Assembly: GCA_944380355.1 (NCBI GenBank)
Contig: CALWHJ010000007.1
Span: forward strand, 8,497-72,496
Direction of reading: 5' to 3'
Source of the DNA: an uncultured Christensenellaceae bacterium
GTDB taxonomy: Bacteria > Bacillota > Clostridia > Christensenellales > UBA3700
DNA length: 64,000 bases
Made by a program: the position numbers and the translations under genes. The notes under the pieces are model-generated. The model searched no databases, was not told the origin of the DNA, and worked only from the letters and a program-made list of their open reading frames with translations. Shown one piece after another: positions 1 through 56,204 of this stretch. Position 1 is the stretch's first letter. Each line of letters starts with the position of its first letter.

Positions 1-365
1 GCGCTGTTGAGAGAAACGTACGAGCGCGCGTATTCCTTATCGTCTATATAGCCGTACTTCTTGCATTTATCCAACGTATATTCGACTATCATTTTGCCGT
101 AGCCCTTTTCGTAGAGCTTGTTTTTGAGTATTTTTTCGGTGGGCGTATATCTCGAAATATATGTCAACGCATAATCGAAAGCCTTGTCTTTGTCGCTGTC
201 GAAAATGACCTTGTCGAGAGTGCTCTCGTCAATCTCCGTGCCTACGGCAAGTTTGTGATTGTATACGGCAATACGGCTTACTCCCGCATAAAATTTACCG
301 TCGACAAAGAGATTTACTCTGTCGATATTCTTGGATTGCAATGTTATGTCGGTAATTATTGCCAT
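1..365 (-). CDS. recX: RecX-like regulatory protein (C-terminal part cut off by the window edge)
   Basis: Absent from the ORF track because it runs off the left edge. Reverse-strand ATG at 363-365 with a GGAGAA RBS just upstream. My translation MAIITDITLQSKNIDRVNLFVDGKFYAGVSRIAVYNHKL...LKNKLYEKGYGKMIVEYTLDKCKKYGYIDDKEYARSYV has the typical Firmicute RecX N-terminus and helical-repeat pattern. Confidence 0.7.
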   Translation of the reverse strand, partial: MAIITDITLQSKNIDRVNLFVDGKFYAGVSRIAVYNHKLAVGTEIDESTLDKVIFDSDKDKAFDYALTYISRYTPTEKILKNKLYEKGYGKMIVEYTLDKCKKYGYIDDKEYARSYVSLNS

Positions 366-2586: not shown

Positions 2587-5500
2587 TTATTTGAAGTAGT
2601 CTACGCCGCTCTCGAAGAGTTTCATATCGTAATTACCCTCGACGTTTTTGTAGAGGTCCTTATCCAAACGCTCGATGTGTCCCATCTTGCCGAGCACTCT
2701 GCCGTCGGGAGAGATAATACCTTCGATAGCGTACATGCTTCCGTTGGGGTTGAAAGGAGACTGCATAGTAGCGTTGCGCGTCATATCCACGTACTGCGTA
2801 GCTACCTGACCGTTTTTGATAATCTTGTCAAGCTCTTCTTTGCTAGCGACAAATCTTCCCTCGCCGTGGCTTACGGGTACGGTGAATACGTCGTCTACGC
2901 GCACCTTAGAAAGCCAAGGAGATTTGTTGGTAGCAATTCTTATGTTGACCATAGTGGACACGTGGCGGGATATGTTGTTGAACGTGAGCGTAGGCGCTTG
3001 GGGCGTCTGCTCTCTTATATCGCCGTAGGGTACGAGACCGAGTTTGATAAGAGCCTGGAAACCGTTGCAAATACCGAGCGCAAGACCGTCTCTCTTATAG
3101 AGAAGTTCCATAACAGCCTCTGCAATACGGGGATTTTTAAAAGTGGTTGCGATAAACTTACCGCTGCCGTCAGGCTCGTCGCCGCCGCTGAATCCGCCGG
3201 GGAAAGCGATTATCTGACTTTGAGAAAGTGCCTTGACGATTTCCTTTGCGCTGTCCTCTATGTCTTTGGACGAACGGTTTTTGATTACCAGAATATTAGC
3301 CTTTGCTCCCGCTCTCTCGAATGCTCTTGCCGTATCGTATTCGCAGTTTGTTCCGGGGAATACGGGGATAAATACCTGAGGTTTGACTATATTGCGTGCA
3401 ACGTGAGGTTGTTTTCTTGCGCAGAATATGAGATTTTGCACTTCTCCGCTCGCGGGTGCGGTCGTGGGGAATACGTTGTCGAGCGTACCCTCGAAAGATT
3501 GCGCAGCAACCTCCATTTTGAGTTCCTTTCCGCAAAGGTCAGCCGTATGAGTTCCGTTGAGGACTGCGACAAGTTGAGCGTCAAACTCTTTGAGTTTGCC
3601 TATCTCGTCGGCAAGCACTACGAAGTCGCCGAATGCAGGCGCGAACAAATCTTCGGAAAGCTCGTTCCAGTCGGTACCTTCTTTGTTACCCATACAAGCC
3701 TTGAATACGCTTGCGACTACACCGCCCTCTTCAACTACGTTGATTGCCTTGATTTTGCCTGAAGCGCACTCGTCTTTGATTGCATCGTAAAGCGCGAGAG
3801 TTTTTGCAAAATCGGGAATACCGTATTCGTCCTTAGGTATAGCGATATGCCATATATTCTTTGCTCCCGACTTATAGCCGAAAGTATTGGTAATAATCTT
3901 GGAAGCCTTGTGTATGCCCATAGCGAAAGATATGAGCGTAGGAGGTACGTCGATATGCTCGAAAGTACCGCTCATACTGTCCTTGCCGCCTATCGCGCCT
4001 ACGCCGAAACCTATCTGAGCATAGAGCGCGCCGAGGAGTGCCGCAAGAGGCTGTCCCCATCTGTCCGCATCCTGATTAAGACGCTTGAAGTATTCTTGCA
4101 AAGAAAGTCTTACTGTCTTGACGTCTACGCCGCAAGCAACCTGCTTGGAGAGCGAAAGCAATATAGAATATATTGCGCCCGTAAAAGGAGAGGACGTCAT
4201 AAGCTGAGGAGAACAACCGTAAGTCGATACGGTAGCCGTATCCGTAAAGCCTTCTACGGGAGGCTTGCTTGCCATAGCTATTGCGGGAGTAAGCTGATAT
4301 TTACCGCCGAAAGGCATAAGTACGCTTGCCGCGCCTATCGTGCCGTCAAACATTTCTCCTAAGCCCTTTGTCGAGCATACGTTGAGACGAGAAAGCTCGC
4401 TGAGTATTGCTTGGTCAAATTCTCCCTTGTCGAAAAGCTGTTCTGTCTTTTCGTTGAGCTTGTCCATATAGTTACTTACGTTGTCGTCAACGTGAGCGTT
4501 TTGTCTTTGTTTTACGCCGTTGGTATCGAGGAATTTTCTCTTAAGGTCTACGATTACGTTGCCCGCGTAGAACATTCTCATTCTGCCGTTGTCCGTAACT
4601 TCTGCGACAGCCGTAGCCTGCAAGTTTTCTTTAGCGGAAAATTCTATGAATTTTTCCACGTCGTTTTTATCGAGTACGACAGCCATTCTCTCCTGAGATT
4701 CGCTTATCGCAAGTTCCGTACCGCTCAATCCCTCGTACTTCTTGGGTACTTTGTCGAGATAAATGTCGAGACTGTCCGCAAGCTCGCCGATAGCTACGCT
4801 TACGCCGCCCGCGCCGAAGTCGTTGCACTTGACGATAAGCTGAGCAACTTCCTTATTGCGGAAAAGTCTTTGAATTTTTCTTTCCGTGGGAGGATTACCC
4901 TTTTGCACTTCTGCTCCGCACACTTCTACGGATTTTTCGGTATGCGCTTTGGAAGAGCCTGTTGCGCCGCCGCAGCCGTCTCTGCCCGTCTCGCCGCCTA
5001 AAAGTACGATAATATCGCCCTTGACGGGTTTTCTTCTCACTACGTTTTCTTTGGGTGCGCCCGCAATAACGTAACCTGTTTCGAGACGCTTAGCGCGGTA
5101 ATTCTCGTGATACATCTCAGCTACCAAACCTGTGGAAAGTCCTATCTGATTGCCGTAGCTGGAATAGCCCGCAGCCGCAGTCTTTGTGATAACTCTCTGA
5201 GGGAGTTTGCCTTTGAGAGTAGTCGATATATCCTGCGTGGGGTCGCCGCTTCCCGTAACTCTCATAGCCTGATATACGTATGTTCTGCCTGAAAGAGGGT
5301 CTCTTATCGCGCCGCCGAGACACGTAGCCGCACCGCCGAAAGGCTCGATTTCCGTAGGATGGTTGTGAGTTTCGTTTTTGAACATAATCAGCCACTTTTG
5401 AGGCTTGCCGTCTACGTCTACGTCAACCTCTACCGAACAAGCGTTGATTTCGTCGCTCACGTCGAGATTGTCGAGTTTGCCCTCTTTTTTGAGTTTCTTG

Positions 5501-6324
5501 ACGGCAATGGTAGCTATATCCATAAGACAGGGATACTTGTCCTCTCTCTTGGAATTGAACTCCTCGTATAAATCGCGGTAAAGATCGAGAGCCTTTTGTA
5601 CGTGAGGGTTGTTGCTGTCGATTTTAATATCCGTAAGCTCGGTCGCGAAAGTCGTGTGTCTGCAATGGTCCGACCAGTAAGTGTCGATTACCTTGATTTC
5701 GCTCTCGGTAGGGTTGCGCTTTTCGCCCTTGAAGTAATCTCTTACGAAAGCCAAATCCTCTTTGCTCATAGCAAATCCCGTCTTTTTGTGGTACTCTGCT
5801 ATCTCCTCGTCGCTCATATCTATAAAGCCCTCGATTACGGGTACGGTAAGATTGAGCTGTACTTCCTGCTCGAGCGTAGCGGGAATTTCCATACTGCCTT
5901 CTCTGCTCTCAACGGGGTTGATAATGTACTTCTTGATTTTCTCGAAGCCCTTATCGTCCGCACCTTTGATTGCATAGAGTTTTGCGCACTTAATCAGAGG
6001 ACGCTTTGCCATAGACAACAGCTGTACGCACTGCATCGCGCTGTCCGCTCTCTGGTCGTACTGTCCGGGAAGGTACTCGACTACGAGCAATTTATATCCC
6101 TTAAGGTCGGGCAATTCCTCGTAGAGGTTGTCTACGGGTTGTTCGCTGAAGATAGTCGTCTTTGCCTTTGCATAGACTTCTTCGTCCAAATCCTCTATAT
6201 CGTATCTTATGAATTCTCTTACTTCGTCGACGTTTATTCCTACCACGTTTTTGATGTCGGCGGTAGTTTTCTTAGCCGATACGTTGTAACCCTCTTTTTT
6301 CTCAACGAAAATTCTCTTTACCAT
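2587..6324 (-). CDS. purL: Phosphoribosylformylglycinamidine (FGAM) synthase, single-chain large form
   Basis: 1245-aa ORF with PurS-like N-terminus, PurL AIR-synthase-related repeats and a C-terminal glutamine amidotransferase domain (FPGGFSGGDEPDGSGKF, GICNGFQAL). Confidence 0.95.
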   Translation of the reverse strand: MVKRIFVEKKEGYNVSAKKTTADIKNVVGINVDEVREFIRYDIEDLDEEVYAKAKTTIFSEQPVDNLYEELPDLKGYKLLVVEYLPGQYDQRADSAMQCVQLLSMAKRPLIKCAKLYAIKGADDKGFEKIKKYIINPVESREGSMEIPATLEQEVQLNLTVPVIEGFIDMSDEEIAEYHKKTGFAMSKEDLAFVRDYFKGEKRNPTESEIKVIDTYWSDHCRHTTFATELTDIKIDSNNPHVQKALDLYRDLYEEFNSKREDKYPCLMDIATIAVKKLKKEGKLDNLDVSDEINACSVEVDVDVDGKPQKWLIMFKNETHNHPTEIEPFGGAATCLGGAIRDPLSGRTYVYQAMRVTGSGDPTQDISTTLKGKLPQRVITKTAAAGYSSYGNQIGLSTGLVAEMYHENYRAKRLETGYVIAGAPKENVVRRKPVKGDIIVLLGGETGRDGCGGATGSSKAHTEKSVEVCGAEVQKGNPPTERKIQRLFRNKEVAQLIVKCNDFGAGGVSVAIGELADSLDIYLDKVPKKYEGLSGTELAISESQERMAVVLDKNDVEKFIEFSAKENLQATAVAEVTDNGRMRMFYAGNVIVDLKRKFLDTNGVKQRQNAHVDDNVSNYMDKLNEKTEQLFDKGEFDQAILSELSRLNVCSTKGLGEMFDGTIGAASVLMPFGGKYQLTPAIAMASKPPVEGFTDTATVSTYGCSPQLMTSSPFTGAIYSILLSLSKQVACGVDVKTVRLSLQEYFKRLNQDADRWGQPLAALLGALYAQIGFGVGAIGGKDSMSGTFEHIDVPPTLISFAMGIHKASKIITNTFGYKSGAKNIWHIAIPKDEYGIPDFAKTLALYDAIKDECASGKIKAINVVEEGGVVASVFKACMGNKEGTDWNELSEDLFAPAFGDFVVLADEIGKLKEFDAQLVAVLNGTHTADLCGKELKMEVAAQSFEGTLDNVFPTTAPASGEVQNLIFCARKQPHVARNIVKPQVFIPVFPGTNCEYDTARAFERAGAKANILVIKNRSSKDIEDSAKEIVKALSQSQIIAFPGGFSGGDEPDGSGKFIATTFKNPRIAEAVMELLYKRDGLALGICNGFQALIKLGLVPYGDIREQTPQAPTLTFNNISRHVSTMVNIRIATNKSPWLSKVRVDDVFTVPVSHGEGRFVASKEELDKIIKNGQVATQYVDMTRNATMQSPFNPNGSMYAIEGIISPDGRVLGKMGHIERLDKDLYKNVEGNYDMKLFESGVDYFK

Positions 6325-7751: not shown

Positions 7752-9290
7752 TCAGTGTTTGAAGTGTCTGTCGCCGCTGAATACCATAGCAATGCCGTAC
7801 TTGTCGCAAGCGTCGATAGAGAGTTGGTCTCTGATGCTTCCGCCCGGCTGCATTATAGCCGCGATACCGCCCTCGTGTGCCGCCTCTACGCAATCGTCGA
7901 AGGGGAAGAATGCGTCGGACGCTAGCACCGCGCCCTTAGTGTCGGTAAGCGAATGCTCGATTGCCTGCTTGGTAGCTCTTATTCTGTTGACCTGTCCGCA
8001 ACCTATACCGAGTATGGTCTTGTCCTTAGCCACTACGATAGCGTTGGACTTGGTGTGTTTGACGACCTTCATTGCAAAAACCATATCTTCAAACTGCTCT
8101 TTCGTAGGTTGAGCTTTGGTTACTGTCTTGCACTTGCTCTCGTCAACTACCGTTTTGTCGTACTCCTGTACCAAAAGTCCGCCGAGTACCTTTTTCATAT
8201 CGTAGCAGTTATCGGGAATAGGCTGAGCGATTTCGGGAAGTTTCAAAAGACGGATATTTGCCTTTTGCTCGAGAATTGCCAAAGCCTCTTCGGTAAAGTC
8301 GGGAGCAACTACTATCTCTATGAATATCTTGCTTATCTGCTCTGCCGTATCTTTGTCAATCGTACGGTTGGACGCGATAATTCCTCCGAAAATGGACGTA
8401 GGGTCTGCGGCGTTTGCTTTAAAGAAAGCCTCGCTTATCGTCTTAGCGGTAGCTACGCCGCAAGGGTTTGCGTGCTTGACGGCAACTATCGTAGGCTCGG
8501 TAAATTCTCTGAGCAAATCGAGCGCGCCGTTGGTATCGTTTATATTGTTGTAAGAAAGCTCCTTGCCGTGAAGCTGAACTGCCGTAGCGAGCGAGCCTTT
8601 GACGTCGAAAGCCTCTTTATAGAATACGGCTTTTTGATGAGGATTTTCGCCGTATCTCATATCCTGCGCCTTGTCGAAAGCCATAGTAAATTTTTCGGGG
8701 AATTCGATGTCGAGTTTCTGGCGCAAGTAATTTGCGATAAGGGTATCGTAATAAGAAGTATGCTGATATACCTTGTACATAAGGTAGAATTTGGTTTCTT
8801 TCTTAATACCGCCCTCTGAAAGCTCGTCGAGTACCTTTGCGTAGTCCTGAGGGTCTACGAGTACGGCTACGTCCTGATAGTTTTTAGCCGCGCTTCTGAG
8901 CATCGTAGGTCCGCCTATATCGATATTCTCTATAGCCGTCTGCAAATCGATACCGGGCTTCTTGACTGTTTCTTTGAAAGGATAGAGGTTGACTACTACT
9001 ATGTCGATAGGGTCGATTTCCATCTTCTTCAAAAAATCCATGTGCTCCTTGTTGTCTCTCATCGCCAAAAGTCCTGCGTGTACCTTGGGGTGCAAGGTCT
9101 TTACTCTGCCGTCGAGACACTCGGGGAAACCCGTAACGGAAGATATATCCACAGCCTTTACGCCAGCCTCGTTGAGGACCTTGAGCGTACCGCCCGTAGA
9201 TATGATGTCATATCCGTATGAAGTCAGTTTTTTTGCAAAATCGACGATACCCGTTTTGTCGGATACGCTGATAAGAGCTTTCTTTGCCAT
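7752..9290 (-). CDS. purH: Bifunctional AICAR formyltransferase / IMP cyclohydrolase
   Basis: 512 aa. [20 protein letters not shown]...GGTLKVL MGS-like N-terminus and a conserved C-terminus ...[11 protein letters not shown]. Confidence 0.95.
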
Positions 9291-9514
9291 TTTTATACAC
9301 TCCTCAAAATTAATTACCTATTGAATTATTGCGATTTGATTATCGCGAGTACGCGCCGAAGCCTGACAAGTTACTCGGCATTGCGTACGCATACAATCTT
9401 TATATAAAGTCGTAAAGATAAAGCCGTCGCACGTTATTGCGCAATTGATATATCACCGCGTACAAATTGTTTTACGGTACAAACCTTTATCAAAAACCGT
9501 AACTTTTCTTCTCT

Positions 9515-11960: not shown

Positions 11961-12452
11961 TTAATTTAACTCCTTTTGTAATTTTTCGTCGTCGGATTTA
12001 ATTTTTTCTGCAAGGCTTCTCTTGTAGTCCTGCATTTTTTCAATGAGTTGAGGATATTTCAAAGACAGCATCTGCACTGCAAGAAGTCCTGCGTTTTGCG
12101 AGCCGTTGATGGCAACGCACGCTACGGGAATACCCGAGGGCATCTGCACCATAGACAGCAAGCTGTCGAGACCGTCCATAGTCGAGCTCTTTACGGGCAG
12201 ACCGATGACGGGAAGAGGCGTATACGCCGCGATGACGCCGCCGAGATGAGCCGCCTTACCTGCGGCGCAAATGATAACTTCTATGTTATTCTTGAGAGCG
12301 TTGACGGCAAACTGATGCGCGTCGTCGGGCGTGCGGTGAGCGGATATAACGCGCGCTTCGACTTCCACGTCAAACTTTTTGAGAATGTCGATTGCGGGTT
12401 TTACCACGTCGAGGTCGCTCACGCTTCCCATAATAACTGCAACTTTAGGCAT
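11961..12452 (-). CDS. purE: 5-(carboxyamino)imidazole ribonucleotide mutase / AIR carboxylase catalytic subunit
   Basis: 163 aa. [10 protein letters not shown] and SAHRTP motifs. GGAGAA RBS upstream of the ATG at 12450-12452. First gene of the operon. Confidence 0.95.
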
Positions 12453-12500
12453 AATGAATTCTCCTTAAAAACATAAAAACTTTTAAAAAATTACACTAAC

Positions 12501-12530
12501 ATATTAGCACAACTATATATATAAATGCAA
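12501..12530 (-). promoter_or_regulatory. Candidate sigma-A promoter of the pur operon
   Basis: Minus strand reads TTGCAT - 18 nt - TAATAT about 50 nt upstream of the purE start. The spacer is one nt longer than optimal. Confidence 0.4.
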
Positions 12531-12610
12531 GGATTTTTGAGGCGGAAAAGTTTGCATTTTTCGGGACTGAGACAGCACGATATAGACATAACGGGTTTTG
12601 TGCATAAATT

Positions 12611-12698
12611 TTATCCACAATGCCGAAAAACGCGGGAATATGCGCAAGTTTTAGGGGTTATCCACACAGTTATCCACAGCAGCCTTGGGTTATCCACA
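12611..12698 (+). promoter_or_regulatory. Cluster of four perfect DnaA boxes (TTATCCACA)
   Basis: Exact 9-mer TTATCCACA at 12611-12619, 12658-12666, 12670-12678 and 12690-12698, all in one orientation. A very AT-rich tract (about 12700-13100) follows. Confidence 0.75.
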
Positions 12699-13111
12699 CT
12701 TTGAAAAGAAGCACATAAGACGGTTTTTAAGTTTAAATTTATTTTGAACTTGTTCAACTTTATGGACAAAACGGTATAATTTTTAATATTTTCTTATCTT
12801 TAGCTCTGCTTTTTGGAATCATTATAAAAAATATTCTGATATTTATTGTAAATAGACGGTGATTTTTGATAGATTTCAATAATTTACAATTTTAAAAATT
12901 TTCTTTTTCTCAACGTCTTAAAAAGCATTTATGTACAAAATTTGTTTTTTACAAAAAAACAGGCTTGTATTTTCCATAAAATTTCCCTGTTTGTGCGAAA
13001 AACCTGACAAATCTTTAGACAAAAGCATTGTATATTCTGCCCGACAAACATAAATTTTGGAAAATAATTCGTATTGTCACCCCGTACTCCCCCGCAATAT
13101 TTCGCTTTATT

Positions 13112-13143
13112 TTATGAAAAGCGGAGCACATAGTACTCCGCTT
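13112..13143 (-). terminator. Rho-independent terminator of icd
   Basis: Minus strand reads AAGCGGAG-uacuaugug-CUCCGCUU followed by UUCAUAAAAU, about 100 nt after the icd stop. Confidence 0.65.
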
Positions 13144-13243
13144 CCGATTAGTTTTTATTTATTATACTAACCATTTGCCATCTCTCAACAACCGTAACCT
13201 TTCCCGTTTCGAATAATATACGGGATATCGTACAGCAATTTAA

Positions 13244-18728: not shown

Positions 18729-19340
18729 TTACACCGTTTTGTCCATATTTTTTGCATCGTATTCACGCTCGGCTTGCGACTTCTTGAGATAATAAGGCAC
18801 AAGCTCAGAAAACTCGTTTGCCTGTATTTTCATCTTGGCAATCGCGATAAGTTTATCGGGGTTGCTCGCTCCGCTCTTTTTGATTACTTTGCAATTTTGC
18901 TTGCTCAATTCCTCTTCGCTAAGCTCTCCGACGAAGACGGGATTGAGAGAAGAATTTTCAAACTTAGCCACATAATACGAATTGTGTCTGCAATCTATCG
19001 CGACTGTTACTTGACTATCGTTTTCACCGTAAGCGAGTTCTTCAAAAGAAGTGATTGAAACGCACTTTTTTCCCGTCGCTAAAGCAAGCGCTTTTACCGT
19101 CGCAACTCCTATCCTTATCCCCGTAAAAGAGCCCGGTCCGACTACGCAACCGAACACGTCGATTTCGTCGATTTTAAGTCCCGCTTTTTTGAGCGTAAAA
19201 TCAACGGACGGAAGTATATTGGAATTGTGTTTTTTACTTCCGCTGTCCGGCAATGTAGAAAAGACTTTTTCTCCGTTTGAACAAGCTATGCACATTTGCT
19301 CGCTTGTAGTATCGATTATCAATATTTTAGTATTATTCAT
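18729..19340 (-). CDS. tsaB: tRNA t6A biosynthesis protein TsaB
   Basis: 203 aa. ILIIDTTSE start and GPGSFTGIRIGVATVKALA motif. Confidence 0.85.
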   Translation of the reverse strand: MNNTKILIIDTTSEQMCIACSNGEKVFSTLPDSGSKKHNSNILPSVDFTLKKAGLKIDEIDVFGCVVGPGSFTGIRIGVATVKALALATGKKCVSITSFEELAYGENDSQVTVAIDCRHNSYYVAKFENSSLNPVFVGELSEEELSKQNCKVIKKSGASNPDKLIAIAKMKIQANEFSELVPYYLKKSQAEREYDAKNMDKTV

Positions 19341-20109: not shown

Positions 20110-20197
20110 ACTTAAATCTCCGCCGTTTTGTCCATACGTATTTTACAGCCTTTTACCGCTTTTGAATATGTATTTTCTATGACATATTATATTACAC

Positions 20198-20226: not shown

Positions 20227-20239
20227 GTCGATAATCAAA

Positions 20240-20365
20240 TAATTCTTTGAGGGCAGGTGAAATTCCTCACCGGCGGTAAAGTCCGCAAACGCCGCAAATT
20301 TTTTATACGGCGCCGAACAAGTGTAATTCTTGTACCGACAGTATAGTCTGGATAGGAAAAGGATA
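20240..20365 (+). promoter_or_regulatory. FMN riboswitch (RFN element)
   Basis: Conserved RFN blocks are present: AGGGCAGGTGAAATTCC, ACCGGCGGTAAAGTCCGC and CCGACAGTATAGTCTGGATAGGAAAAGG. It lies immediately upstream of a RibU-type gene. The 3' strand of P1 overlaps the AAAAGGA RBS. Confidence 0.85.
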
Positions 20366-20370
20366 CTTTT

Positions 20371-30625: not shown

Positions 30626-33600
30626 TTATTTTTTGTTGTCAAAACGGTTGAGAAACTCTTTTGCTCTGTCCTTTTCTCTCTGTATAAAGCCCTTTGTCTC
30701 TTTAAACAATGCCTTGAACGCTTCTATCTCCACGCGCATAAACGCCATTATAGGGATTATGCACAGCATAATGATTACGAGTTTTACCACCATATCGGGA
30801 TAGAGCGATACGAGCGTAAACATTTCGCTGAGGAAAGGATTGCTTACCGCGAAAATGAACGCTACGAACAAAAGCGCAAGCATAAATATCTTGTCTTTCG
30901 TGTAAGGCATACATACCTGCATAAGGACTATGAACGATACGCACGCCGTGATATAAACGCTCATCGTAGATATCTGAGGACTTACGTCAAAACCGATATC
31001 GTTGTAAATCCAACATATCAGCGTTATAGCAAACGCTACGGTAAGTCCCGCCGGCAACGCTCGCTTGAATACCTTGCTCAGGAAGTTGCCTTTTACGCGT
31101 CTGTCGTTAGGCTCGAGCGCGAGAATGAACGAAGGTATACCTACGAACAAAGTGTTTATCAACGTGAGCTGTATAGGCTCGAAAGGATACGTCGAAAGCT
31201 GGAATATAATAAGCAACAACGACAGTACCGCGCTGAACGTAGTTTTTACGAGGAAGAGCGAAGCCGCTCTCTCGATGTTGTTGATAACTCTTCTGCCCTC
31301 TGCTACTACGCTCGGCAAAGCCGAGAAGTCGCTGTCGAGAAGTACCAGCTGAGATACGTTACGGCTTGCATCCGAACCGCTTGCCATTGCTATCGAACAG
31401 TCCGCTTCCTTGAGTGCCATTACGTCGTTGACGCCGTCTCCCGTCATACCTACGGTGTGACCGTGCGCCTTAAGCGCGGCAATAAGTTCCTTTTTCTGCG
31501 AGGGAGAAACTCTTCCGAATACGGTATACTTCTCTGCCGCTTCGTAAATCTTATCGGGAGTATCCAAATCCACGGACGCGTCCACATACTTTTCTGCATT
31601 TTTAAGTCCCGCTCTTTCCGCTACCTTGGAAACCGTCAAAGGATTGTCTCCCGAGATAACCTTGAGCTGAACGCCCTGTTTTTCAAAATAATCGAAAGTC
31701 GCTTTCGCGGTACTTCTTATCTTGTCGCTCAATACTATAAGCGCAATTATCTTCATCTTCTCGGTAGACATATCGCCGTCTTTCAACACCTCGCCGGTCT
31801 TCACCAGTACAAGGACTCTGAAGCCCTGAGAAGCGTATTCCTTGACGTCGCGGTCAACCATATAATATCTGTCTTTGAGCACGAATTCGGGCGCGCCTAC
31901 GATAAACGTGCCTGCGTCCTTAAAACTTGCTCCGCTCCACTTTCTTGCCGACGAGAAAGGCATCAGTTTGAGCACCTCGTATCTCTCATTTGATGAGAAA
32001 TAATTAGCGCACGCCTCAAAAGTCGCGTTGTTTTGTCCGAGCGCGCTTACAAGATTTGCCATTATATCGTCTACCGAGCCGAGACGAGAAGAATATACGT
32101 GTACGTTTTCAACCTGCATCGTACCCTCGGTAATCGTACCCGTCTTGTCGAGACACAGCGTGTCTACTCTCGCAAGCGTTTCTATCGAGTACAAATCCTG
32201 TACGAGCGTACGTCTTTTTGCAAGACGAATAATACCCAAAGCCAGCGCGATTGACGTGAGCATTACCAGACCTTCGGGTATCATACCTATTACCGACGAA
32301 ACGGTAGCGGTAACGGCACTCGAAACGCTGGCAGCGTACGTCATATTAGTCTTGAACATCAATATTCCGAGAGGGAAAATGATAATCGTCGCGATACGGA
32401 TAATCCAGTTAATGGAGCGCATGAGTTCGGATTTTGACTTTTTGAACTTCTTTGCTTCACTCATAAGCTTGGAAGCATAAGTGTCGTCTCCTACCGCGAT
32501 AACCCTTGCCTTACACGTACCCGACTGCACAAAACTACCCGACATCATTCTGTCGCCGTTTTGTTTGTGGATATCGTCCTGTTCGCCCGTAAGAAGCGAT
32601 TCGTTGACTTCGCATTCTCCGTCGACGACGATACAGTCCGTAGGTATCTGACTTCCTTGTTTGAGAATTATTATATCGTCGATTACAATCTCGCTTGTGG
32701 GCAAACTGACCTTCTCTCCGCTTCTCATAACTTCGATAGACGGCGCGGATACAAGCGACAGCTTGTCGAGTGCGACTTTCGAACGTATCTCTTGCACTAT
32801 ACCTATTACGAGGTTGACGATTGCGATTATCGCAAACAACATATTCTTGACCTGTCCGTTGAAGATGAGTATCATCGCGGCAAGGAATACGTTGACGATA
32901 TTAAACAGTGTGAATATGTTGGTGGTAAATATCTTGAGATAGGATTTTGAGATTGCGTCGGACTTGAAGTTGACCATATTGCGCAATACTCTTTCTTCTA
33001 CTTGCTCTTTGTCGAGACCCGCATCAGGGTCGGCGTATACGTTGATAAAAGGCGTATCCTTGAGTGCTTTAGCCTTTTCCTTGTTTACGGCTCGCAAATC
33101 CTTATAGAGATTTCTGCGCTTTTTGCTCGTCTTTATCTTAGGCTGTTTTGCCTTCTTGTGTTTTTTATCCTCTTCTTTTTTGTCGTTTTGCTCGTCTATT
33201 TTTTCCATTTCGAGCGCAAAATTACTCTCGAAAGAAACTTCTCTCTCTTCTTCTGCCTGATTGTCGCCGTCTTTTTTGCCTTTTGACTTTTTGACGGCTA
33301 TGGTCTTGACTTCAAGAGTTTTTTCGGATTGAATTTTTTCGTGACTTTTCTTTGAAGCCTTGACTTCTTTTGACTTGGTCTTTTTGTCTGCGTGTTTTTC
33401 CTGCGCATTTTCCCCGTCGGCAATTTCCTGCGCATCTTCGACCTTAGACAGGGAATCTTCCTTGTCTTTTAACTGAGCGGGACCTCTATCCTGTTTTGAC
33501 AAAGCGGAAATTGCTTTGCCGCCGGATTTGCTGTCACCCCTATCCTTCGCCAAAACGTCTGACGCACTCAAATCGGCAAGGCTTTCGGGAATATCCGCAA

Positions 33601-33748
33601 GCATCTCGCCCTGCGATTTTTTAGATGCACTCTTTCTGCTTCCGGAAGGTCTCGGACTTCTGCCCTGAGACTTAACCGTCTGCACAGGCTCAACGTCCGA
33701 AAGAGTAAGCTGCTCGTTTTGACTGTCCTTTTTAGATTTTCCTGCCAT
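30626..33748 (-). CDS. Cation-translocating P-type ATPase (P2-like) with a long Lys/Ser/Glu-rich N-terminal extension
   Basis: DKTGTITEG, PEGL and TGDGVNDVMALKEAD motifs with about 8-10 TM helices. I chose the start at ATG 33746-33748 (MAGKSKK), which has an AAGGA RBS. The first ~230 aa are low-complexity. Confidence 0.9.
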   Translation of the reverse strand: MAGKSKKDSQNEQLTLSDVEPVQTVKSQGRSPRPSGSRKSASKKSQGEMLADIPESLADLSASDVLAKDRGDSKSGGKAISALSKQDRGPAQLKDKEDSLSKVEDAQEIADGENAQEKHADKKTKSKEVKASKKSHEKIQSEKTLEVKTIAVKKSKGKKDGDNQAEEEREVSFESNFALEMEKIDEQNDKKEEDKKHKKAKQPKIKTSKKRRNLYKDLRAVNKEKAKALKDTPFINVYADPDAGLDKEQVEERVLRNMVNFKSDAISKSYLKIFTTNIFTLFNIVNVFLAAMILIFNGQVKNMLFAIIAIVNLVIGIVQEIRSKVALDKLSLVSAPSIEVMRSGEKVSLPTSEIVIDDIIILKQGSQIPTDCIVVDGECEVNESLLTGEQDDIHKQNGDRMMSGSFVQSGTCKARVIAVGDDTYASKLMSEAKKFKKSKSELMRSINWIIRIATIIIFPLGILMFKTNMTYAASVSSAVTATVSSVIGMIPEGLVMLTSIALALGIIRLAKRRTLVQDLYSIETLARVDTLCLDKTGTITEGTMQVENVHVYSSRLGSVDDIMANLVSALGQNNATFEACANYFSSNERYEVLKLMPFSSARKWSGASFKDAGTFIVGAPEFVLKDRYYMVDRDVKEYASQGFRVLVLVKTGEVLKDGDMSTEKMKIIALIVLSDKIRSTAKATFDYFEKQGVQLKVISGDNPLTVSKVAERAGLKNAEKYVDASVDLDTPDKIYEAAEKYTVFGRVSPSQKKELIAALKAHGHTVGMTGDGVNDVMALKEADCSIAMASGSDASRNVSQLVLLDSDFSALPSVVAEGRRVINNIERAASLFLVKTTFSAVLSLLLIIFQLSTYPFEPIQLTLINTLFVGIPSFILALEPNDRRVKGNFLSKVFKRALPAGLTVAFAITLICWIYNDIGFDVSPQISTMSVYITACVSFIVLMQVCMPYTKDKIFMLALLFVAFIFAVSNPFLSEMFTLVSLYPDMVVKLVIIMLCIIPIMAFMRVEIEAFKALFKETKGFIQREKDRAKEFLNRFDNKK

Positions 33749-33795
33749 CAAAGTATCCTTATAACACAAAAATATAGCTTAATTAAAGCAACTAA

Positions 33796-33824
33796 ATAAT
33801 ATCACAGCAAGCCGTAATTGTCAA
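33796..33824 (-). promoter_or_regulatory. Candidate sigma-A promoter of the P-type ATPase gene
   Basis: Minus strand reads TTGACA - 17 nt - TATTAT, about 50 nt upstream of the start codon. Confidence 0.55.
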
Positions 33825-34141
33825 ATATATTTATATTATTACACAGGCGCAAAACAATAATCATTATTCACAAAAACCTTTCGCAAAATCGTAATTCGCA
33901 AACAATATAGTATCAATTACCTTGATAATTCTTTACCGGCATTTAAAATTTGCAAATACGCCACAAATCCTTATTCGCTTTTCTCGTCAATCTTTTTCAC
34001 ATAAACAATTTTACAATTCCTCTCAAAGCAATTCTCTCAATGTTTTCCTCAGCCTGGAGTAATCAAATTTTCACGTTTGATTTGCATAACACCCGTATAA
34101 GCTTCTTCTTCAATAGTTTGTTATCTGACTACTCTTTCAAT

Positions 34142-34203
34142 ATTATTTTCCAACTGAATTATTTTCCAACTGACTGTATTCACTAACTGACCGTATTCCC
34201 TAA
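34142..34203. repeat. Two adjacent short tandem duplications
   Basis: attattttccaactga occurs twice, perfect, at 34142-34157 and 34158-34173. It overlaps ctgacYgtattcMctaa, which occurs twice at 34170-34186 and 34187-34203. Confidence 0.85.
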
Positions 34204-34237
34204 TCGCATACCTGCCGCTAATTCCCGCTTAAATTAC

Positions 34238-34258
34238 GATTTGAACATTGTTCAGTTT
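34238..34258. repeat. 21-bp repeat copy A containing palindrome TGAACA-T-TGTTCA
   Basis: gatttgaacattgttcagttt, identical to 34761-34781. A partial third copy, tgttcagtttta, lies at 34859-34870. Confidence 0.9.
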
Positions 34259-34760
34259 TATTATATATGTGCAATATATGCACTGAATACATACTCACAC
34301 TTTTATAACTAATCCGTAATCAAACCGACAAAACAAACTTTTGATAACGCAGATTTAAAGCGTTAATGCCTGATCTACTCCCCATGCCATCATTACTCAT
34401 TTTGTCGAGATTTAACTAATAAATAGGCTTAGAAACATTTCGAAAGATAATGTAGATAATGTATTTATATAATTAAAAGCAACACTTTCGCTATAAAGAC
34501 TTATAACTGTCTGGCTATTGCCATTTCAGTTCATTTTTTGTTCAAATATGAGTTTTAACTCATATAAAGCATTTTGTTGCTATATTCATTTTATACTTTT
34601 ACACCTTTTTTCAACGCGTTTCAAAATATAAACATACAAATATACCCCTCGTCTATCCCCTTCGTCAATCGGCAATCTTCAAATTCGGATATCTCAGCTC
34701 CGACAAATAAACACATTCCCCCGTTGGCAACAAACAATTATTATTATCATTAAAAACAAG

Positions 34761-34781
34761 GATTTGAACATTGTTCAGTTT
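34761..34781. repeat. 21-bp repeat copy B containing palindrome TGAACA-T-TGTTCA
   Basis: Identical 21-mer, 523 bp from copy A, inside the same gene-free AT-rich region. Confidence 0.9.
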
Positions 34782-35030
34782 ATAAATTATGCTTAGTATG
34801 ATAATAGTATATCCTGAGCATTTCATACTCGTTGCTTGCCGCATACAAAATTATACACTGTTCAGTTTTAATTAAAAACAATACGCAAAAACGATATCCT
34901 TATCCGCTTCTCATATTTAAAAATCCTATACACACTCCTGCATAAATTGAAGAATCACCATAAGCTGACACCCCCATATAATTTAATACATAGCACGCCT
35001 ACACCTCTTTATTTTGCAAAAAGCTTTTAT

Positions 35031-35071
35031 CAAATACAAAAGCCGCTTCCCATAGACAGGAAAAGCGGCTT
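35031..35071 (-). terminator. Rho-independent terminator of the aromatic operon (after tyrA)
   Basis: Minus strand reads AAGCCGCUU ... AAGCGGCUU followed by UUGUAUUUGAU. Confidence 0.7.
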
Positions 35072-35201
35072 TGTTATGAACATTATTAACTTTATGATTA
35101 TAAAATGTTTTCAACAAAATGAATTAAACCTTTAGAATATAATTCTATCAGGTTGACGCAATCAGGTTTGAGAAGATTTTTATAGTACAAATATATCTTG
35201 C

Positions 35202-46162: not shown

Positions 46163-46408
46163 AAAAAGTCCCTTGCAAACAGCAAGAGACGAAATCTATC
46201 CGTGGTACCACTCTTTTTCGTATCTACGGCCAACACCGATTTACGATACCTTGACGCTATAACGGGCTTACCCGACACTCTCTTACTGTGATTGGGAGAG
46301 GCGACTCAAAGGCGAGTTGGCTTATCTGTCCTGTTGTCTCACACCTACCGACAACTCTCTGCAAAGACTTCAAAGTTAGTATTCCTTGTCGTAGTCTTTA
46401 GATATTAT
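46163..46408 (-). promoter_or_regulatory. T-box riboswitch leader of leuA
   Basis: The minus strand contains an AGAGA-type motif near the 5' end and the T-box sequence AAAAAGAGUGGUACCACGG. The terminator GUCUCUUGC-uguuu-GCAAGGGAC-UUUUUU follows (46163-46190). The 5' arm of that terminator can alternatively pair with the T-box. Confidence 0.8.
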
Positions 46409-54764: not shown

Positions 54765-56204
54765 TTACTCTTTATTTTCCTTAAGGCTCTCTTCGTACCA
54801 CGCTACCGCGGTGTCTATATCCTTATAAGTAGCGGCATTGGAATATCTGTCTATCTCTACGCTATTTTTGATATTGTCGTGATGCAACGAGAGTGCGCCG
54901 TTGAGGCAGCCTCCGTCGCAAGCCATACCCTCGAAGAAGTTTGCGGTAGTCTTGTTGAACTTGAGTTTGAGCAAGTTTGCTCTTATATCGTCAATACCGC
55001 TCATAGCCACAGGCTCGACTTTCTTTTCGCCCTTGACGAGTTTAGAAATATCTGCGGATATGCCGCCGCACTTAGCGAATACTCTTCCCATCGTGGAAGC
55101 TTCGTCGATATTGGTTTCTTCAAGCGTAAGCAAATCGACCCCTCTTGCATCCAAAAATGCCTGCAACTCTTCAAAGGAAATTGCATTGTCAACCGCTCCC
55201 TTTGTCTTATCCATTCTGTACTCGAGCTTTTTGCTGGTGCAAGGTCCGATAAATACTGTCTTGATTCCGAGGAATTTTCTCTTGAGGAACATAGCCGTTT
55301 CGACCATAGGAGAAGGCGAAGAGGATATGTACTTTGCAAGTTCGGGGAAATTCTTTTCTACGAACATTACGAAGGAAGGACAGCACGAAGTCGTCATAAG
55401 TCCTTTTTCTTCAAACTCTTTTGCCTCTTTGTAAAGCGTGATGTCCGCACCGAGAGCCGCTTCGTATACCTTGCTGAAACCGAGCTTTTTGATACCCGTA
55501 ACAAGCTGTCCGAAAGTAGCGGGCTTGAACTGGCTGGCAATCGCGGGAGCGATTATTGCGTAGACTTTGGTACCCTTTTCCTTGCTCTCTTTGAGCAGAT
55601 TGAGAGTATCGAGAATATAGGATTTGTCTACTATTGCGCCGAAAGGACAGTTATACACGCACGCGCCGCACGCAATACATTTATCGTTGTCGATTTTTGC
55701 TCTGTCGTACTCGTCCATAGATATAGCCTTTACTTTACAGCTCTTTATGCAAGGACGGGACTGCTCTATTATCGCGTCGTAAGGACAAGCCTTTGCGCAG
55801 CGTCCGCACTTGATGCACTTGTCCATATCAATCACGGGCTTGTTGTCCACTATAGTAATAGCGTCCTTAGGGCAAGCTTCCTTACACTTATGGACAATAC
55901 AGCCACGGCAAGCGGGAGTAATATACATACCGCTGATAGGACATGAGTCGCATGCAGCCTCGATAACCTCCACGATATTGGGGTTATCCTTATTGCCGCC
56001 GAGAGCAAGTTTTATTCTCTCCTGGACGATAGCGCGCTCCTTATAGATACAGCATCTGAAGCTGGGCTTGGGTCCGGGGGAAATTGACTTGGGGATATCC
56101 ATATAGATATTGGACATATCGCCCTTGTCGTATGCCTCTATAATCTGTTTTAAAACTTCGTATTTGAGTTCTTGTACTTTTGTGTCGAATTTACTGTTGC
56201 TCAT
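54765..56204 (-). CDS. Monomeric [FeFe]-hydrogenase-like protein (ferredoxin-type clusters + H-cluster domain)
   Basis: 479 aa. Two CxxCxxCxxxCP ferredoxin motifs and the H-cluster signatures TSCCPSF, GPCTSKKLE and EGMACDGGCLNG. Confidence 0.8.
   Translation of the reverse strand: MSNSKFDTKVQELKYEVLKQIIEAYDKGDMSNIYMDIPKSISPGPKPSFRCCIYKERAIVQERIKLALGGNKDNPNIVEVIEAACDSCPISGMYITPACRGCIVHKCKEACPKDAITIVDNKPVIDMDKCIKCGRCAKACPYDAIIEQSRPCIKSCKVKAISMDEYDRAKIDNDKCIACGACVYNCPFGAIVDKSYILDTLNLLKESKEKGTKVYAIIAPAIASQFKPATFGQLVTGIKKLGFSKVYEAALGADITLYKEAKEFEEKGLMTTSCCPSFVMFVEKNFPELAKYISSSPSPMVETAMFLKRKFLGIKTVFIGPCTSKKLEYRMDKTKGAVDNAISFEELQAFLDARGVDLLTLEETNIDEASTMGRVFAKCGGISADISKLVKGEKKVEPVAMSGIDDIRANLLKLKFNKTTANFFEGMACDGGCLNGALSLHHDNIKNSVEIDRYSNAATYKDIDTAVAWYEESLKENKE

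Follow-up and report, generated by a model that had tools for sequence, protein, structure and literature searches.

The 64-kb window analyzed here, i.e., the whole stretch of 64,000 nucleotides from contig CALWHJ010000007.1 of an uncultured Christensenellaceae bacterium, numbered from its first letter, bears a cluster of exact DnaA boxes in front of purE, the first gene of an operon for de novo purine synthesis. NCBIfam annotation places purE, purC, purM, purN, purH, and purD on one flank of the cluster and icd, ddl, and murF on the other, all of them on the minus strand, as had been assumed in a first-pass annotation of this DNA made from the sequence alone. From the Pfam families assigned to the same gene in related contigs, the open reading frame (ORF) at 2587-6324 can be identified as a large FGAM synthase (purL), giving the operon order purE-purC-purM-purN-purH-purD-purL. 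The gap separating purE from icd extends over 791 bp (12453-13243) from the purE start (12452, minus) to the icd stop (13244). It had been described as gene-free, which is corroborated by the lack of any credible ORF within it; likewise, no Rfam family was found in the gap even at E-values of up to 10, the output of this permissive scan being noise. The intrinsic terminator proposed for icd turned out to be genuine, forming a hairpin at 13117-13145 (minus) with a folding energy of -18.8 kcal/mol and a z-score of -4.55, which is kept at the strain level and isolates the pur promoter region from icd transcription. The features of the region are as follows, with boxes 2 to 4 being referred to as the triad.

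11961..12452, minus strand: purE, first gene of the operon and presumed regulated target (NCBIfam TIGR01162, E = 2e-59)
12461..12466, minus strand: ribosome-binding site AAGGAG of purE, read from the sequence
12501..12509, minus strand: predicted extended -10 element TGCTAATAT, 18-nt spacer, invariant columns in a 20-species alignment
12525..12530, minus strand: predicted -35 hexamer TTGCAT of the pur operon, its TTG invariant in the 20-species alignment
12551..12561, minus strand: A/T block, reading AAAAATGCAAA on the purE strand and adjoining the -35 hexamer on its upstream side, conserved in closer species
12581..12594, plus strand: proximal copy of a second motif, TATAGACATAACGG, present in 17/17 sequences of the icd-linked subclade
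12599..12607, minus strand: near-consensus box TTATGCACA in inverted orientation, 3 bp from box 1, matching the relaxed consensus TTWTNCACA
12611..12619, plus strand: DnaA box 1, TTATCCACA, accessory and nearer the promoter, exact consensus
12658..12666, plus strand: DnaA box 2, TTATCCACA, promoter-proximal box of the triad, exact and near-invariant in 31 species
12670..12678, plus strand: DnaA box 3, TTATCCACA, middle box, its start 12 bp from that of box 2, exact consensus
12690..12698, plus strand: DnaA box 4, TTATCCACA, distal box, its start 20 bp from that of box 3, invariant in 31/31 triad sequences
12700..13100, no strand: lineage-specific AT-rich tract with weak box-like words, 73% A+T versus 55.5% for the window
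12761..12774, plus strand: distal copy of the second motif, TATGGACAAAACGG, overlapping the box-like word TTATGGACA, in 15/17 subclade sequences
13117..13145, minus strand: intrinsic terminator hairpin of icd, 13 bp, followed by UUUUCAU

Scanning the complete window for the exact consensus TTATCCACA returned four copies spanning 88 bp, all on the plus strand at 12611-12619, 12658-12666, 12670-12678, and 12690-12698, precisely where the first-pass annotation had placed them. They are the sole exact copies in the 64 kb, for which 0.35 would be expected, and none of 100 shuffled sequences reached four, in line with the previous claim that such clustering is not a matter of chance. Boxes conforming to the relaxed consensus are also enriched in the gap, where 15 were counted versus 3.9 ± 2.0 expected, 10 of these 15 residing on the plus strand. 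Over the whole window, 29 one-mismatch matches were found versus 11.7 ± 3.9 expected, and relaxed boxes outside the gap favor the plus strand as well (131 versus 81). This window-wide excess of near-consensus words is probably an effect of composition or strand bias.

For evaluating conservation at the strain level, eight sequences were compared, copies of the locus on gut metagenome contigs having been retrieved via exact-protein matches. The four boxes are invariant in all eight, whereas variation is seen in the 11 nt separating box 3 from box 4. Elsewhere in the gap, L005 and L009, which belong to the same species, have the icd-proximal 240 bp swapped for non-homologous DNA when compared with 13000-13243 of the window, while their box region and the segment corresponding to 12700-13000 are still nearly identical to it; in L010 and L011, an extra TTATCCAC word has been gained within the 13000-13243 segment. 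At the species level, 32 loci from species-representative genomes were included, defined by a PurE at least 77% identical and an available upstream sequence; among these are L012, the PurE of which is 100% identical to that of the window, and L038, derived from the complete 1.815-Mb chromosome OZ006985.1. In front of purE, at a distance of 195-330 bp, all 32 loci show two to four exact boxes, which are invariably found on the strand not coding for purE and have a start-to-start spacing of either 12+20 or 32 bp. Elsewhere in these loci, amounting to about 0.5 Mb in total, no further exact box was found, nor does any occur within 1.2 kb upstream of purE in more distant relatives. If TTTTCCACA is accepted as middle box or TTGTCCACA as proximal box, the full triad is present in 31/32 loci. 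More specifically, box 3 reads either TTATCCACA or TTTTCCACA in all 31 triad-bearing species, and the only deviation in box 2 is the TTGTCCACA of L035. Box 1, in contrast, is exact only in the window species and in L012, L013, L017, L022, and L023 while being degenerate in the other species, and the inverted box at 12599-12607 is confined to the window species and its closest relatives.

The strength of this conservation becomes evident from the information content, which amounts to 1.96 bits per position in the boxes but to only 0.64 in the spacers and 0.61 in the flanks (31 unique sequences). Similarly, in an alignment of the 360 nt upstream of purE from 20 species with a mean identity of 46%, the invariant columns essentially comprise the ribosome-binding site, the -10 and -35 elements, and boxes 2-4; the ribosome-binding site falls within a conserved CTCCTT block (alignment window positions 9-14) with C11 and T13 being invariant. 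The direct upstream neighbor of purE is icd in a part of the clade only. This gene is located about 6 kb away in L039-L041 and L089, is absent from the 10 kb around purE in L028-L036, L038, L042, and L043, and in several of these loci the nearest long ORF upstream appears to be divergent, as far as crude ORF picking can tell. Nevertheless, where the upstream neighbor differs, the strand of the triad and its distance to purE are unchanged. Taken together, the comparison shows that the DnaA-box cluster is a selected element under strong purifying selection. Absence or scrambling of the boxes in close relatives had been named in the first-pass annotation as one part of the outcome that would speak against a functional cluster; instead, they are kept in about 32 related species. 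Of the two roles put forward at that time, titration of DnaA and direct control of purine synthesis, the comparative data favor the second, because the cluster stays with purE where icd is not its neighbor.

Perfect boxes adjoining a 400-bp tract of 73% A+T, together with weak box-like words enriched over the whole gap, might also be taken for the chromosomal origin, a second origin or the relic of one, with boxes and tract serving as unwinding element, and the same triad indeed occurs just upstream of dnaA in another lineage, as detailed below. However, the GC skew is negative in almost every 2-kb segment of the 64 kb and the cumulative skew falls steadily, without any extremum near 12.6 kb, and the long ORFs to the left and right of the boxes are encoded almost exclusively on the minus strand. 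Extending the skew and strand-bias check, which had been proposed previously, to related genomes revealed the same skew sign on both sides of the boxes in 26/26 loci and thus no switch. In addition, no DnaA or DnaN domain is encoded by the long ORFs of the window, confirming that dnaA and dnaN are missing here. When searching for a basal unwinding system, defined by a DnaA box, a spacer of not more than 16 bp and, following it, three or more NAN trios (PMC8287927), four consecutive trios were found beside box 4 in the window (GAA AAG AAG CAC), which are not conserved; no conserved DnaA-trio array was detected, runs of at least four NAN next to the outer boxes being present in at most 3/28 species, equivalent to the chance rate of 11%. 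Hence, similarity to the basal unwinding system of oriC is limited to tandem consensus boxes 3 bp apart and to AT-rich DNA nearby in the window species, whereas the purE locus has neither a conserved DnaA-trio run nor a conserved AT-rich element nor a skew switch.

With regard to the AT-rich tract, its composition was described correctly in the first-pass annotation, while its presumed partnership with the boxes did not hold. The tract is missing or unalignable in most species keeping the boxes: in many box-bearing relatives the gap measures merely about 380-480 bp, and the tract aligns in part with L013, the closest other species, but not with L022 or L023, two further species with long gaps. 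The alignments thus indicate that it is not a conserved partner of the boxes and should be dropped from the model. The oriC reading is ruled out by skew and ORF strand, the 26 related loci, the DnaA-trio test and the non-conserved tract, and any variant of it can be regarded as largely refuted and extremely improbable. The purE-upstream cluster is not a replication origin, which agrees with the earlier proposal of an accessory cluster instead of a classical oriC.

A promoter for the pur operon had been suggested within the purE-proximal part of the gap. This is supported by the comparison and can be refined to a -35 hexamer TTGCAT at 12525-12530 and an extended -10 element TGCTAATAT at 12501-12509, with transcription predicted to start near 12494. 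The corresponding pattern TTGnnn-N17/18-TGnTAnnnT is found in 33/33 sequences at 77-113 bp upstream of the ATG, and the A/T block at 12551-12561 is possibly an UP-like element. Relative to the predicted start, the box centers are located at about -121, -168, -180, and -200. In all 33 sequences the boxes lie 111-169 bp upstream of the conserved -35 hexamer, always on the same strand, and the distance between the proximal triad box and this hexamer falls into the classes 111-113, 135-136, 144-147, 154-157, and 168-169 bp. These classes are roughly one helical turn apart, with a circular resultant peaking at R = 0.78 for a period of 11-11.5 bp (naive p = 0.003). Such helical phasing of the triad to the promoter is suggestive only and is not employed here as a main argument.

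In the icd-linked subclade, the triad is flanked on the box strand by a second motif, TATrGAyAwAAyrG. It has five matches in the window (12581-12594 and 12761-12774, both plus; 18734-18747 and 20123-20136, both minus; 55889-55902, plus) versus 0.23 expected. The proximal copy is usually separated from the triad by about 77 bp (76-78 bp in most sequences and 89 bp in L024, L026, and L027), while a true box, either TTATCCACA or TTTTCCACA, aligns at the position of the distal copy in distant species. Conservation across species is also seen in the 5' leader of tsaE just before the ribosome-binding site and at the 3' end of tsaB before rimI. By its sequence, the motif may represent a weak variant of the DnaA box (TTATG[C/G/T]ACA) or the site of another factor. 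It is conceivable, then, that another protein binds the repeats or that a factor specific for TATrGAyAwAAyrG is the functional regulator, the resemblance to DnaA boxes being incidental, and the conserved copies on both sides of the triad as well as those at the tsaE leader and the tsaB/rimI junction are in line with this. On the other hand, the conserved 9-mer corresponds exactly to the DnaA box of high affinity, at all three positions and in about 31 species, the same triad is found elsewhere in front of dnaA itself, and more distant species keep the triad while the second motif is absent from them. An incidental resemblance is therefore considered very unlikely.

Occurrence of the triad outside the purE loci was assessed by scanning metagenome sequences for the pattern TTATCCACA-N3-TTWTCCACA-N11-TTATCCACA, which resulted in 79 loci, five of them being purE loci of this clade. 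At least eight others (L096, L099, L116, L136, L137, L143, L158, and L169), from an organism of about 55% GC, have the triad in front of dnaA, at a distance of 57-98 bp and on the coding strand of this gene, in the form TTATCCACA tgg TTATCCACA aatgtggatgg TTATCCACA, with the downstream gene confirmed as dnaA by its Pfam domains Bac_DnaA, Bac_DnaA_C, and DnaA_N. The same three-box cassette therefore appears to serve at the initiator's own gene in another gut lineage. Other triad loci are situated near a replication-initiation gene of the DnaB_2/DnaD type or on phage-like contigs. Hence, a triad geometry specific to purE can be ruled out. In two further loci, L123 and L152, from an unrelated organism with 32-34% GC, the triad (at about 1640 and 1066, respectively, in the orientation used) follows 160 bp past the 3' end of a pair of purE and SAICAR-synthase (purC-like) genes, a second co-occurrence with purine genes that may be due to chance. 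Many phage-like contigs possess DnaA-box arrays at comparable spacings, and in a sample of viral DnaA-box clusters (L171-L260) the start-to-start distances of exact boxes with the same orientation show sharp maxima at 11-12, 21-22, and about 33 bp. This helical periodicity implies that such boxes are preferentially placed on the same side of the helix. In the purE triad, the 12-bp spacing belongs to the main peak and the 20-bp spacing to the shoulder of the second peak, while the span of 32 bp corresponds to about three turns. Triad geometry and viral spacing rule thus lend support to a putative cooperative head-to-tail binding of DnaA.

Among known systems, the closest match is with the non-origin DnaA-box clusters and DnaA-regulated promoters of Bacillus subtilis (PMC3245932, PMC4447404). 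Its clusters at sda, ywlC, yydA-yycS, ywcI-vpr, gcp-ydiF, and trmE-jag consist of several consensus boxes in intergenic regions outside oriC and near promoters, and likewise the purE region has four exact boxes and one relaxed-consensus box within 100 bp, in an intergenic position and in about 32 species. As in DnaA-regulated promoters, the boxes take a conserved position with respect to one promoter in 33/33 sequences. The B. subtilis clusters restrain initiation and, in addition, allow DnaA to activate sda, the boxes being located upstream of it, and to repress ywlC and yydA (PMC3245932, PMC4447404). The pur operon, however, is absent from the known B. subtilis sites, and the purE cluster is smaller, with three core boxes, and locked to one gene family-wide, whereas the Bacillus clusters change neighbors between species. 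Employment of the initiator as transcription factor for nucleotide-supply genes via DnaA boxes is documented for Escherichia coli, where DnaA represses the gua operon (guaBA) and activates or represses nrdAB (PMC8203912). The likeness to purE has its limits, since E. coli belongs to another phylum, the purE locus concerns early steps of de novo purine synthesis, and the E. coli boxes are positioned at or within the promoter or the transcribed region, whereas the purE triad is more than 100 bp upstream of the -35 hexamer. The core of three boxes outside oriC is reminiscent of the E. coli loci DARS1 and DARS2; there, however, box I is inverted with respect to boxes II and III, giving a head-to-head arrangement (PMC5742627), whereas the conserved purE triad is entirely co-oriented. 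A DARS layout was consequently rejected, the triad being on one strand and the inverted box at 12599-12607 occurring only in the window species and its closest relatives.

The comparison with E. coli datA is relevant for a further possibility, namely, that the cluster is a pure DnaA sink restraining initiation, without any specific effect on purE and with the adjacency to this gene being historical. Like the purE cluster, datA is intergenic and outside the origin, and its essential boxes share one orientation, which points to DnaA oligomers assembled head-to-tail (PMC5742627). DnaA binding is to be expected at co-oriented boxes of high affinity, and since no other exact box exists in about 0.5 Mb of related sequence, those at purE would be among the strongest sites of the genome. 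Moreover, initiation in B. subtilis is delayed by clusters outside oriC, which keep this function after relocation (PMC3245932). On the other hand, datA requires a site for IHF between its boxes 2 and 3 and stimulates hydrolysis of DnaA-bound ATP. No IHF consensus WATCAANNNNTTR is present in 12453-13243, and Firmicutes are devoid of IHF and Hda (PMC13220808), so that a datA-like mechanism was discarded. In about 32 species, the cluster keeps its strand and its distance of 195-330 bp to purE despite changes of the upstream neighbor, and its distance to the promoter shifts in steps of about one helical turn. Titration as sole function does not explain this strict link to purE, and a mere sink is thus regarded as unlikely, albeit less so than an unrelated binding protein.

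The control of pur operons is usually exerted by PurR or a purine riboswitch. In the window, no purine or ZTP riboswitch reaches the Rfam gathering score, and none is found in the gap at E-values of up to 10, confirming the earlier failure to spot a purine riboswitch in the purE leader. Box-bearing relatives were equally free of purine and ZTP riboswitches (0/7 tested). Among box-less relatives, one out of seven, L049, has a purine riboswitch upstream of purE (9239-9341, plus; about 660-760 bp upstream). Judged from these numbers (0/7 box-bearing, 1/7 box-less), control of the pur operon differs widely within the order. A replacement of the riboswitch by DnaA boxes is unsupported, as L049 is the only one of the seven box-less relatives having it. 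For the PurBox AWWWCCGAACWWT recognized by PurR, the best matches seen by eye have 10 of 13 positions, and the CCGAAC core is not conserved in the relatives; on this inspection, which was not a formal scan, a PurBox was rejected as unsupported.

Considering all this, the reading we favor, with moderate confidence, is that of a non-origin DnaA-binding module at the pur promoter, the occupancy of which would modulate expression of purE-C-M-N-H-D-L, with some titration as by-product. DnaA binding, the transcriptional effect and its sign at purE are inferred here from the sequence. The core would be formed by the three co-oriented consensus boxes, 12 and 20 bp apart and covering about three helical turns, a layout presumably suited to a DnaA oligomer that assembles cooperatively and head-to-tail along one side of the helix; lineage-specific weaker boxes surround it (box 1, the inverted box, and TTATGNACA-type words). 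From its position 111-169 bp upstream of the -35 hexamer of a conserved, rather weak extended -10 promoter, this module would follow the amount of free active DnaA and, hence, the replication status, and its occupancy would modulate purE-C-M-N-H-D-L transcription, tying purine supply to replication. Sequestration of some DnaA by the high-affinity sites would be an unavoidable side effect. As to the sign of the presumed DnaA effect at the pur promoter, we lean toward activation because all boxes are located upstream of a weak extended -10 promoter (18-nt spacer), as at B. subtilis sda. Repression is equally precedented, by the repressed targets of B. subtilis and by gua of E. coli (PMC8203912).

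Several points weigh against DnaA control of the operon. The boxes are far from the promoter, with centers at about -120 to -200 from the predicted start, and do not overlap with it. The distance between triad and promoter varies from 111 to 169 bp, and the transcription start is a predicted one only. The phasing drops to p = 0.07 after collapse to five indel classes, the species not being independent. Furthermore, the triad is also seen in numerous unrelated settings, for instance, on phage-like contigs, which makes its geometry generic and silent on purines, and with the second motif flanking the triad in closer species, another factor could be the real regulator.

A bolder version of DnaA control, in which DnaA would be the primary direct regulator of the de novo purine operon across the Christensenellaceae, replacing PurR or riboswitch, with the same cassette at dnaA and purE closing a feedback loop, is put forward tentatively, as possible rather than probable. 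In such a loop, free active DnaA would rise when replication is imminent or stalled for lack of nucleotides, the triad would be filled and purine synthesis would go up.

Besides the purE region, the window encodes SpoIVA and contains a T-box and an FMN riboswitch, pointing to a spore-forming Firmicute; by a scan of species-representative genomes, the window was assigned to uncultured Christensenellaceae (Christensenellales, Clostridia). The FMN riboswitch (20239-20367, plus) precedes a gene for an ECF-type (RibU-like) transporter divergent from tsaE, and the T-box leader (46182-46401, minus) is found upstream of a leuA-like 2-isopropylmalate synthase gene; both are ordinary arrangements. A further spacer of 1.43 kb at 33770-35201, between the gene of a P-type ATPase and tyrA, has about 35% GC and a strongly negative GC skew of about -0.25. 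It contains two relaxed DnaA-box words, at 33864 and 33993, but no credible ORF and no significant Rfam match, and the short weak tandem repeats found in it are not significant either. Read from the listed TTG start, a putative start codon, the adjacent P-type ATPase ORF (30626-33769, minus) has an N-terminal extension of about 250 residues before the E1-E2 ATPase domains, of low complexity and rich in Lys, Glu, and Ser.

The means by which bacteria adjust the supply of nucleotides to replication are understood only in part and, to our knowledge, direct evidence comes solely from a few promoters of proteobacteria (guaBA and nrdAB). In the literature, we encountered no publication that connects DnaA boxes with purE or the pur operon, and the DnaA-purine link in Firmicutes suggested by the sequence data has most likely not been described before. 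The purE locus offers a clean and naturally replicated test case in this phylum, with a three-box module at one metabolic operon in about 30 species, and supplies a defined fragment as well as point mutations for binding and reporter studies, TTATGGTGA being an example of a mutant form of TTATCCACA for boxes 2-4. It also suggests that the DnaA regulons of uncultured gut Clostridia can perhaps be read from comparative genomics. If DnaA indeed controls the pur operon, pur expression in metatranscriptomes could report on the replication status of the Christensenellaceae.

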